DNA of 64,000 bases, taken from IMG/VR virus record IMGVR_UViG_2920951204_000001, positions 75,476 to 139,475 of that record. The stretch is one strand, 5' to 3'. The translations under genes and the position numbers were made by a program. The notes under the pieces are model-generated. The model ran no database searches. It was given only the letters and a program-made list of their open reading frames with translations, and was not told where the DNA came from. Source of the stretch: a virus. Lineage: Duplodnaviria > Caudoviricetes. This document shows, in pieces, positions 41,232 through 43,099 of the stretch (positions within the stretch are counted from its first letter, which is position 1; each line of letters opens with the position of its first letter).

Positions 41232-42029
41232 ATGGATAAAGATTTAGATATTTCATTATTGGAATTCAAATACTTAGACCTAGTTGCTTGTTATACACAT
41301 AATACTCAAACAAACAAGGGAATGACCGCAATCGGTCGTTCAAAAATAATAGATGGTCTAATCCAACTTGAAGAAAATATACATCGAATATTAAGACAGT
41401 TAAATGCTTATGATGCTTCTTCTATTCTAATTGCAGAAACAAATTGGATGAAACGAAACCATTTTGGTAAATATATGCCAAAGAAAGGTAATAAAAAGAA
41501 AGTTGCTTTCGGACAGGTATGCACAATTGATTATGGGAAAAGTTATAAGGGTGAAATCGGGTATGTTCATCCTGGTCTTTGTATAGGAAAAAAGGATGAT
41601 AAATATTTAATTGTACCAATGACAACAGGTAAGAACTGGAGGGATACTTGTTATCATCCTACGCTTAATCCAAATATGACAAAGGAACATCGTCAATGTT
41701 GTACCTCCGAAGGATTTGAAAAAGATGGTGTATTATTGATAAATGATTCAAAGTTTATGTCTGGTGGACGTATTTTAGAATTACATGAAGTAATACCTTC
41801 TGAAATTTTAGAAGAGATACAATTGCAGTTATTGTATATTATGTTTCCAGATATTTATAGAATTTTCAATAAAGACAAAAATAAAATTACTCGTCTTGAA
41901 AATTCAGCAAGTGATAGAGAACGACAAATTGCAAATTTAAAACTCAAAAATGAAAAATTGTCAAACAGAATTCGTGACCTAGAGTGCGAAATTAATAACA
42001 TTACATCTTCTACGGAAAATCACGAATAA
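41232..42029 (+). CDS. PemK/MazF-like toxin domain protein with C-terminal coiled coil
   Basis: 'GQVCTIDYG....GEIG.VHPGLCIG...YLIVPMTT' PemK signature. Confidence 0.75.
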   Translation: MDKDLDISLLEFKYLDLVACYTHNTQTNKGMTAIGRSKIIDGLIQLEENIHRILRQLNAYDASSILIAETNWMKRNHFGKYMPKKGNKKKVAFGQVCTIDYGKSYKGEIGYVHPGLCIGKKDDKYLIVPMTTGKNWRDTCYHPTLNPNMTKEHRQCCTSEGFEKDGVLLINDSKFMSGGRILELHEVIPSEILEEIQLQLLYIMFPDIYRIFNKDKNKITRLENSASDRERQIANLKLKNEKLSNRIRDLECEINNITSSTENHE

Positions 42030-42034
42030 AACTG

Positions 42035-42218
42035 TTGACAAAAGCATATGCTTTACATATAATACTAAGTAACGGAACAGGAAGTTCCACGGAACAGTAT
42101 TATATTTTTACAGAGTCCTGCTTATAAATTGCCGTGCCACTGGGTTAATGGCAGAATTTAAGTGTGAGGCTCACGGAGTTAAAGAGCACTATCATTATGG
42201 GATGATAATGCTCTTTTT
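42035..42218 (+). ncRNA. sRNA (~42070-42218) with its own TTGACA-17-TATAAT promoter and terminator, downstream of PemK-like gene 1
   Basis: Promoter 42035-42063; long internal hairpin; terminator AAAGAGCA...TGCTCTTTTT; no ORF. Confidence 0.7.
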
Positions 42219-42270
42219 CAATATAAAAGATTTAGGAGAGTATTACTACTCTCCTTTCCTATTCACCTAT

Positions 42271-42282
42271 AAACATATGTTC
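42271..42282. promoter_or_regulatory. LexA-box-like site AAAC-ATAT-GTTC
   Basis: Lies in a promoter block homologous to the one upstream of 41232. Confidence 0.5.
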
Positions 42283-42353
42283 TGATAGTATTCTGTCGAT
42301 TATTGGTATATAACGGTAATATTAAATACTAATGCTTGGGAGGATATTAGTTT

Positions 42354-42958
42354 TTGAGAGAATTAAAAGATGAAAAATTACGATATAAATTGGATATAAT
42401 TTATAAAAACATAAAAAAATTAAAAAGATTAGATATTGATAATTATTATTGTGCCAACTTATTAGATTGGTTTAATGAAATTATTTTAAAGAATATTGCA
42501 ATATTTAAGAGCAAAAATGATATTAATCAAATGGATCAAGAACTTTTTAAAAAAGAAAGACAATATGTTTATTGGATTGATTTCGGTAGAAATATAGGAA
42601 GTGAATTTAGAGATTTACATTTTGCGGTTGTAATATTTGAATCAAAATATACAGCTCTAGTGATTCCATTAACATCTAAAAAAGATCATGATCCAACATG
42701 GATTGAAGAAAATAAAGAAGCGATTGTTGATTTAGGAATCATAAATGGCTTTCCTGATGAAACAAAAGAATGTTATGCCTGTACTTTTATGATACAATCT
42801 GTTAGTAAAAACGCCTTTCACGATATGGAGATAACCAAAAAGGATATTTTGATATTAAACTTTCTAATAATCAAATGAGAAAAATATGTAATAATTTATC
42901 TCAAATTGCATATAATAGTATATCAGAAAACATTGTTGACACAAACGAATTGATGTGA
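42354..42958 (+). pseudogene. Second PemK/MazF-like toxin gene with a 1-nt frameshift at the A5 run 42807-42811
   Basis: 'VYWIDFGRNIGSEFRDLHFAVVI...VIPLTSKK'; adding one A restores 'SVSKKRLSRYG...IVDTNELM*' ending at 42958. Confidence 0.7.
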
Positions 42959-43099
42959 TATAGTTAAATAGTCAATAAGGACAGTGAATTGATATGTTAG
43001 GATTACCATTTTCCTAACGCTATTTGGCATTGAGCCAGTGAATTATATAAAAAGATATTTCTTTTATGAGCAACTATAAACATATAGTTGCTCTTTTTT
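42936..43099 (+). ncRNA. sRNA (~42971-43099) with TTGACA-17-TATAGT (extended -10) promoter and terminator, downstream of PemK-like gene 2
   Basis: Promoter embedded in the toxin 3' end; CAGTGAATT repeated twice; terminator GAGCAACTATA/TATAGTTGCTC plus T6. Confidence 0.7.

Follow-up and report, generated by a model that had tools for sequence, protein, structure and literature searches.

The 64,000-nucleotide stretch of a tailed-phage genome analyzed here (positions 75,476 to 139,475 of IMG/VR record IMGVR_UViG_2920951204_000001; Duplodnaviria, Caudoviricetes), called the window below, carries two gene-RNA cassettes on its plus strand. Each consists of a gene for a MazF/PemK-like protein (gene 1 and gene 2; the fold is probable for the first and well supported for the second) that is followed by a consensus promoter, a small structured RNA (RNA1 and RNA2), and a terminator. 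The partnership of gene and RNA is strict and oriented in both families. Our preferred explanation, to which we give a probability of roughly 55%, is that the cassettes are type III-like modules in which the toxin gene comes first and the RNA would bind the nuclease as a two-site pseudo-substrate. As self-contained toxin-RNA modules they would have an architecture unreported in the open-access papers searched, and would otherwise fall within the RNA-neutralized toxins. A first-pass annotation of the window, made from its letters, had proposed a toxin followed by a downstream RNA antitoxin, present as two diverged copies. The comparison of related loci lends strong support to the module itself, through the partnership and the pattern of loss, and none to the idea of recently diverged copies.

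In all 10 gene 1 homolog loci with downstream sequence, the stop codon was immediately followed by a promoter, an RNA, and a terminator. The RNA could be aligned with RNA1 in six of these loci (54 to 92% protein identity), and the other four (39 to 44%, referred to as clade B) had a different RNA in the equivalent position. For RNA2, a covariance model (R1) built from 13 sequences found the RNA at 106 to 137 bits in 32 of 32 loci with a gene 2 homolog of at least 59% identity. The match was weaker in one more divergent locus (L041), and the window's own genome contained a single copy. No intact toxin gene without its RNA was found among about 45 loci, not all of which are independent. Because the pairing of gene and RNA holds in all relatives examined, the RNA is probably an antidote.

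The two parts are lost asymmetrically. The toxin gene is broken and the RNA intact in the window (frameshift), in L032, where the TGG codon of the invariant Trp39 has become TGA, in L045 (frameshift), and probably in L046. In other viral contigs the toxin gene is absent. L061 (1250-1445) and L063 have an RNA1-like gene with its promoter, which is abutted by a divergent DUF6173 gene, and L068 (4590-4800) and L069 to L071 have the clade-B RNA and an intact promoter, with only the last codons of the gene left. Thus, the RNA outlives the toxin gene and the reverse was not seen in these loci, as would be expected of a toxin and its antidote, a toxin gene not being keepable without its neighbor. The orphan RNAs may be leftover antitoxins, or they may be decoys that shield the phage from related toxins.

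RNA1 was also considered as a canonical upstream type III RNA of gene 2. This assignment was rejected because RNA1 follows gene 1 in loci that lack gene 2 (L001 to L003, L008, and L010) and because gene 2 occurs without RNA1 in L012, L019, and L020. Gene 2 is absent from L008 and L010, where a convergent terminator comes directly after that of RNA1, and therefore RNA1 belongs to gene 1.

Both RNAs share a design, two copies of a helix plus an invariant single-stranded word, and the helices vary in a compensatory manner (features in Table 1). The predicted fold of RNA1 (-44.8 kcal/mol, z -3.5) was equaled by none of 200 shuffled sequences. Compensatory changes were found in its hairpin P1, its long stem P2, and its terminator, and both of its single-stranded motifs were invariant in 7 sequences. 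RNA2 folds at -35.2 kcal/mol (z -4.45), again with 0 of 200 shuffles as good. In the RNA2 alignment 97% of cells were paired and 13 of 25 pairs were compensatory, a result reached by 0 of 500 shuffles, and each of the six pairs of the central hairpin had a compensatory change. When the pairing partners were moved by 1 to 3 columns as a control, 38 to 62% of cells were paired. The RNA2 motif, CAGUGAWUU, occurs as CAGUGAWUUGA after the first mini-hairpin and as CAGUGAWUUA after the second. At its variable position the two copies agreed in 13 of 13 sequences, both having A or both having U, and the choice tracked the protein clade. Neither RNA contains a conserved open reading frame (ORF): a 45-amino-acid ORF at 42148-42285 was not conserved in the RNA1 alignment, nor was a 7-codon ORF in the RNA2 alignment.

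These results agree with the description of the RNAs in the first-pass annotation as structured, ORF-free transcripts of 130 to 150 nucleotides (nt) that end in terminators. The annotation had also drawn attention to a short word repeated in each RNA. The RNA2 word, CAGTGAATT at 42982-42990 and 43036-43044, 54 nt apart, is a conserved pair. The RNA1 word, ACGGAACAG at 42072-42080 and 42089-42097, is so only in part, because its first copy forms the 5' arm of P1 and is variable among relatives; conservation is seen for CACGGAA/CACGGAG instead.

The promoters of the RNAs, which had been recognized as TTGACA-17-TATA(A/G)T after each gene, are the best (RNA1) and third best (RNA2) of 29 promoter-like sites in positions 40100-43900. 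The RNA1 promoter was seen in every related locus. In the loci read, the -35 element of RNA2 is TTGACA, or TTGACG in two of them, with its position unchanged. In most it lies over the final codons of the gene, and the -10 element is usually preceded by an upstream TG. On the plus strand, the scan detected no terminator-like site from the end of either gene to the promoter of its RNA, and thus the toxin mRNA probably runs through the RNA to the same terminator. The core of the RNA1 motif, ACGGAA, also occurs in the last codons of gene 1 (42011-42016), just 5' of the RNA1 promoter, and recurs there in the close relatives L062, L064, and L066. Speculatively, this might be a candidate cleavage site that splits the toxin ORF from the RNA tail.

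TABLE 1 Window coordinates of the two cassettes and of surrounding features
Feature	Position	Strand	Remarks
Gene 1	41232-42029	+	265 aa; N-terminal helices, probable MazF/PemK core at about residues 94-201, C-terminal coiled coil
RNA1 promoter, TTGACA-17-TATAAT	42035-42063	+	12/12 matches; begins 5 nt after gene 1 stop
RNA1	42070-42222	+	About 150 nt; ends predicted
RNA1 hairpin P1	42074-42078 with 42084-42088		GGAAC/GUUCC, GAAAC/GUUUC in relatives
RNA1 motif CACGGAA	42088-42094		Single stranded; directly after P1
RNA1 long stem P2	About 42113-42124 with 42160-42172		Several compensatory pairs
RNA1 motif CACGGAG	42172-42178		Single stranded; directly after P2
RNA1 terminator	42181-42216 plus T-run		Inverted repeat I18; kept as terminator in relatives
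Gene 2	42354-42958	+	Intact relatives 201 aa; two-helix N-terminal hairpin plus MazF core
RNA2 promoter, TTGACA-17-TATAGT with upstream TG	42936-42964	+	11/12 matches; inside 3' end of intact gene 2 frame
RNA2	42971-43099	+	About 130 nt; window copy 113.5 bits with covariance model R1
RNA2 mini-hairpin (3 bp)	42971-42982		
RNA2 motif CAGUGAAUU, first copy	42982-42990		
RNA2 central hairpin	42995-43019		
RNA2 second mini-hairpin	43026-43036		
RNA2 motif CAGUGAAUU, second copy	43036-43044		
RNA2 hairpin AAAAG/CUUUU	43050-43065		
RNA2 terminator	43068-43093 plus U-run		
LexA/Cheo-like box GAATATACGTTC	41159-41170	+	5' of gene 1
Promoter-like site of gene 1, TAGAAA-17-TATAAT	41174-41202	+	Promoter scan 10/12
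LexA/Cheo-like box AAACATATGTTC	42271-42282	+	5' of gene 2
Hairpin between the two cassettes	42234-42255		Terminator-like on both strands (terminator scan)
ANT/Bro antirepressor gene	39178-39945		In cargo island
Two 52-nt 6A RNA repeats (RF02925)	40415-40518		60.3 bits; diverged first unit 27.9 bits
TenpIN toxin gene	40540-41031		NF047358 E 3.4e-45; PADLOC AbiQ weak match
Zinc-ribbon ORF	43160-43831		Convergent to cassettes, after gene 2 cassette

The gene 2 ORF in the window spans 42354-42878 (174 amino acids) and then continues in another frame to 42958. The run of A residues at 42807-42811 has five members here and six in two near-identical metagenome contigs (L018 and L019), in keeping with the earlier suggestion that the frame of 42354-42958 needs repair. 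The 1-nt deletion could be a real inactivating mutation in a decaying toxin gene or an assembly error in a homopolymer. Gene 2 matches the Pfam family PemK_toxin with an E value of 1.1e-5. The predicted structure of an intact relative (P0063), modeled from 90 sequences with a mean pLDDT of 80.6, has an N-terminal two-helix hairpin (residues 6-55) and a beta-barrel core. In a Foldseek search its best matches were YdcE/MazF of Bacillus subtilis (1ne8, E 5e-6), MazF-mt1, and Staphylococcus aureus MazF, with E values of 5e-6 to 1e-5 and TM scores to the target of about 0.7; nothing relevant was returned by a search of the PDB by sequence profile. The Pfam match and the modeled fold together make a solid case for gene 2 as a PemK/MazF protein. 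The family phrog_1412, labeled 'antitoxin mazE-like', also matches gene 2, as well as P0063 (E 1.2e-16) and, over its full length, the corresponding protein of Streptococcus prophage 315.1 (E 1.2e-70); it did not match gene 1. The label is misleading because the model of the gene 2 relative has a MazF fold.

The assignment of gene 1 is probable, from three weak but concordant lines. The Pfam PemK_toxin match has an E value of 0.05 (residues 94-201). Alignment with the gene 2 family by hhalign gave an E value of 4.5e-5 and a probability of 69% over 43 core columns. The Foldseek matches listed, to rank 50, were all MazF/Kid at E values of about 1e-3, for a model of low confidence (pLDDT 61.7, from a 19-sequence alignment). 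All 62 full-length gene 1 homologs have three parts, with N-terminal helices, the core, and a C-terminal coiled coil. These findings uphold the earlier recognition of two MazF/PemK-like genes, more firmly for gene 2 than for gene 1. They do not show two recent copies of one module. The gene 1 and gene 2 families are distant, as the short hhalign match indicates, each has its own RNA family, and each is found alone elsewhere.

Compared with MazF/PemK, the proteins studied have about 65 to 90 extra N-terminal residues, and the N-terminal helical extension is conserved across the families compared. They also differ at a key position. In an alignment made by eye, canonical members of the superfamily (L060 and L061) have DRPAV after the second strand, and we take the Arg of this Arg-Pro motif to be the catalytic Arg of MazF. 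The canonical motif was not found in gene 1 or gene 2, which have His instead of Arg (His113-Pro in gene 1 and His89-Phe in gene 2). A fourth N-extended family, described below, has His-Tyr, and the His is invariant within each of these three families. The P-x-T-T/S motif is retained despite the replacement, with the threonines of PMTTG in gene 1 and the Thr/Ser position (PLTSKK) in gene 2. The His could conceivably still support catalysis.

No candidate for a protein antitoxin emerged, because no flanking ORF is conserved; the neighbors of gene 1 and gene 2 homologs vary by locus and are often on the opposite strand. This result supports the earlier statement that the two genes lack a protein antitoxin.

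The same layout recurs in other N-extended families, where it was read in single loci. L061 has, at 1634-2317, a third such PemK gene, which retains the canonical Arg-Pro and matches Pfam with an E value of 9e-20. A TTGACA overlaps the stop codon of this gene and is followed by an RNA, which R1 matches weakly (E 0.007), and a terminator. The arrangement in L060 is the same. In Streptococcus prophage 315.1, SpyM3_0682 (246 amino acids, annotated "PemK/MazF family toxin") lies between the repressor and integrase genes. There, too, TTGACA overlaps the stop codon; downstream of it are two hairpins and then a terminator (L073:2405-2540). ORF019 of Staphylococcus phage 85 adjoins the integrase gene. 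After it come an extended -10 promoter, two hairpin repeats in tandem that have identical loops and compensatory stem changes, and a terminator (L082:1410-1550). The RNA genes of 315.1 and phage 85 are unannotated in their records. A tblastn search with the 315.1 protein gave matches in 109 phage records (62 from Staphylococcus and 47 from Streptococcus). S. aureus phages commonly carry relatives, one of which is labeled 'pathogenicity island protein'. It is quite possible, if still tentative, that the N-extended MazF/PemK proteins of Firmicute prophages (in Lachnospiraceae, Streptococcus pyogenes, and S. aureus) form a new RNA-neutralized superfamily that is defined by toxin-first order, a separately promoted two-site RNA, and LexA-type control. 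The fourth N-extended PemK family (L047 to L059; about 180 to 205 amino acids) has conserved noncoding sequence about 100 to 250 nt after the stop codon, consisting of TTAGTAGTT repeats, a DnaA-box-like word TGTGGATAAC, and a TTTACATAATA...ATTATTG(A/T)AAGT block.

The region upstream of the genes suggests how expression of the toxin might be controlled. Of 24 distinct upstream regions from both families (loci L001 to L036), 17 had a LexA-like box, RAAY-N4-GTTY, at 62 to 97 nt 5' of the start codon, compared with 0.045 expected by chance. The box suggests SOS-type control of the toxin promoter. The toxin may therefore be kept repressed in the lysogen until DNA damage induces it, whereas the RNA, with its consensus promoter, is predicted to be made constitutively. 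Part of the gene 1 promoter block is repeated 5' of gene 2 (repeat D16, TAATATTCTGTCG / TAGTATTCTGTCG).

A mechanism that would account for these features can be outlined. A weak promoter with a LexA-like box would drive the gene for an enlarged endoribonuclease of MazF/PemK fold, and a consensus sigma-70-type promoter at or inside the 3' end of the gene would drive the RNA in excess, with the RNA also carried on each toxin mRNA. The two units of helix and invariant heptamer-to-nonamer would be recognition sites of the nuclease. The RNA would fill the RNA-binding grooves of the toxin dimer, perhaps after cleavage at the motifs, as ToxI does with ToxN. The nuclease might then be freed by the shutoff of transcription during phage infection, by RNA decay, or by a burst of toxin upon SOS or prophage induction, with arrest of the cell as the outcome. 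In this scheme we only infer that the protein is toxic, that it binds the RNA directly, and that it cuts at the motifs, and the same holds for the trigger and the role (phage defense or prophage retention).

The known systems that the cassettes most resemble are of type III (ToxIN/AbiQ, CptIN, and TenpIN), with which they share a toxin of endoribonuclease fold, the lack of a protein antitoxin, a small structured RNA with repeated motifs, and a location in phages and islands. ToxN is structurally related to Kid/MazF, and ToxI is cut by ToxN. To our knowledge, however, the type III systems have toxins from other families, with the repeat array upstream. The only toxin family matched by both gene 1 and gene 2 was PemK_toxin, and the proteins belong to this Pfam family or are MazF-fold by model rather than ToxN, CptN, or TenpN; the ToxN and TenpIN models match the neighboring ORF at 40540-41031 and not gene 1 or gene 2. 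Type III systems have an upstream tandem array of 34- to 52-nt repeats behind a leaky terminator, whereas the RNA of each cassette follows the gene, is driven by a separate promoter, and consists of one unit with two motifs of 7 to 9 nt. With the type II systems MazEF and PemIK (Kid-Kis) the cassettes share the fold of the toxin core, the best structural matches being MazF, but they have no MazE/PemI gene and differ in the N-terminal extension, the coiled coil of gene 1, and the His at the Arg position.

Toxin-first order and RNA antitoxins are each familiar from other systems. In mqsRA the toxin gene comes first, and antitoxin-specific promoters uncouple constitutive antitoxin from the toxin gene (PMC6918082); the mqsRA antitoxin is a protein, whereas the candidate antitoxin here is an RNA. 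Full-text searches of open-access papers turned up no account of a MazF/PemK toxin whose RNA partner lies downstream in the same orientation. In Clostridioides difficile, AbiF is reportedly a phage-encoded, RNA-regulated system. Identity of RNA1 or RNA2 with the Rfam pemK motif (RF02913), a check that the first-pass annotation had called for, was rejected. Against Rfam 15, both the scan of the window at the gathering score and a scan of positions 40200-43400 at E values up to 10 left RNA1 and RNA2 unmatched and returned only the 6A repeats, and seven related loci had no match at the gathering score, RF02913 included. RF02913 is a different RNA, a 61-nt element that takes its name from adjacent pemK genes and is present in 34 of 151 Clostridia genomes. 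In the six loci examined it lay 5' of a canonical 126-amino-acid pemK, of parA, or, in one case, of an unrelated 134-amino-acid ORF. The window's own genome has an RF02913 match exactly at the gathering score (34.8 bits) outside the window, at C2:286134-286197, that is unrelated to the cassettes.

If the cassettes are toxin-RNA modules, then MazF, the textbook type II toxin, would also act as a type III toxin. MazF/PemK proteins are the model protein-neutralized toxins, and a widespread branch of MazF kept inactive by a small RNA of its own, encoded downstream, would be a new toxin-antitoxin architecture. It would give a function to unannotated RNA genes in the well-studied prophages of S. aureus and S. 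pyogenes and would offer an explanation of how antitoxin-less MazF-like defense genes spare their host. In that case, an RNA component may have been missed in MazF-like defenses reported as single proteins, such as Sma. The invariant motifs predict the recognition sequences of the nucleases.

Several observations weigh against this interpretation. Gene 1, gene 2, and the fourth family have His in place of the Arg of the Arg-Pro motif, and the proteins could therefore be RNA binders that do not cleave. The extra N-terminal helices could act as an internal inhibitor of the nuclease, and no RNA antidote would then be needed. The RNA lies downstream and forms no tandem array, unlike in every characterized type III system. 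The fold of gene 1 is supported by three weak lines, the frameshifts in metagenome assemblies can be sequencing errors, and the concerted change between A and U in the RNA2 motifs may be one evolutionary event. Finally, Sma is a MazF-like defense protein reported as a single-protein system (PMC12409344, PMC12829572). Likened here by description only, it resembles the proteins studied in being MazF-like, on a mobile element, and without a known antitoxin, with phage defense shown by others, and it differs in being reported as one gene without an RNA partner.

One alternative is a ribonucleoprotein with another purpose, in which the protein would mature, stabilize, or be guided by the RNA. The complex or the processed RNA would then act on other targets, such as host or phage transcripts or the control of lysogeny, and the protein would be no restrained toxin. 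Strict pairing and invariant motifs would suit any specific RNA-protein partnership. The His in place of the canonical Arg would fit as well, as would the LexA-like box, which suggests regulated expression of the protein upon prophage induction, and the position of the Streptococcus and Staphylococcus phage genes in the lysogeny module beside the integrase gene. However, parts that are useful only together would hardly be lost so asymmetrically, and the MazF fold and the adjoining TenpIN module point to a toxin. We regard this alternative as unlikely.

A self-regulated, Sma-like defense toxin of a single protein is more doubtful still. Such a protein would be kept inactive by its N-terminal helices or by LexA-type repression, and the RNA would be secondary, serving for protection of the 3' end or for insulation. 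The helical extension common to the families compared favors this possibility, and control at the level of transcription would fit the conserved LexA-like operator. Yet a structural element at the 3' end needs neither a consensus promoter of its own nor two invariant motifs, and the RNA and its promoter survive loss of the gene.

There is only a slim chance of a type I-like arrangement, in which the RNA would base-pair with the toxin mRNA and block its translation or cause its decay. RNA antitoxins that act by pairing are well known, such as CjrA/CjpT of the Campylobacter jejuni plasmid pVir, described as antisense type I (PMC10470494), which like the cassettes would combine an RNA antitoxin with a protein toxin on a mobile element. 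In the cassettes, unlike in CjrA/CjpT, the RNA is co-oriented with the gene, and hence not antisense to it, and the 5' region of the mRNA is not complementary; the best duplex of each RNA with the cognate 5' untranslated region and first codons was no better than with shuffled sequences (z 0.20 and 0.44). Chance juxtaposition of promoter- and terminator-like sequences in AT-rich phage DNA (the window has 31% G+C, with 29 promoter-like sites compared with 23.7 expected) is already refuted by the conservation of the RNAs, with compensatory changes, in dozens of loci at 59 to 100% protein identity.

The surroundings of the cassettes are consistent with the preferred interpretation as toxin-RNA modules. 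The window, which corresponds to 121120-185119 of contig C3 in a 2.9-Mb genome, is part of a prophage, and both cassettes lie inside a cargo island flanked by large ORFs at 35354-37939 and 43770-48353. The 6A repeats and the TenpIN gene (40415-41031) form a canonical type III module directly 5' of the gene 1 cassette, which suggests that the island gathers modules of such a kind. PADLOC v2 gave no defense-model match for the gene 1 or gene 2 protein, and an Rfam scan at the gathering score found no group I intron in the window. A DNA-level search of a phage collection returned no match, and a search of 400 genomes from the same family located gene 2 in that of the window and in no other. The nearest relatives of gene 1 and gene 2 are in Lachnospiraceae-type genomes, gut metagenomes, and IMG/VR viral contigs. 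In two of the related loci, L012 and L020, a closely similar ORF (MWRTVSARLRG... / MNMWKTVSARIRG...) lies just 5' of the gene 2 cassette. L012 has another large ORF 3' of the cassette, and the cargo varies between loci.

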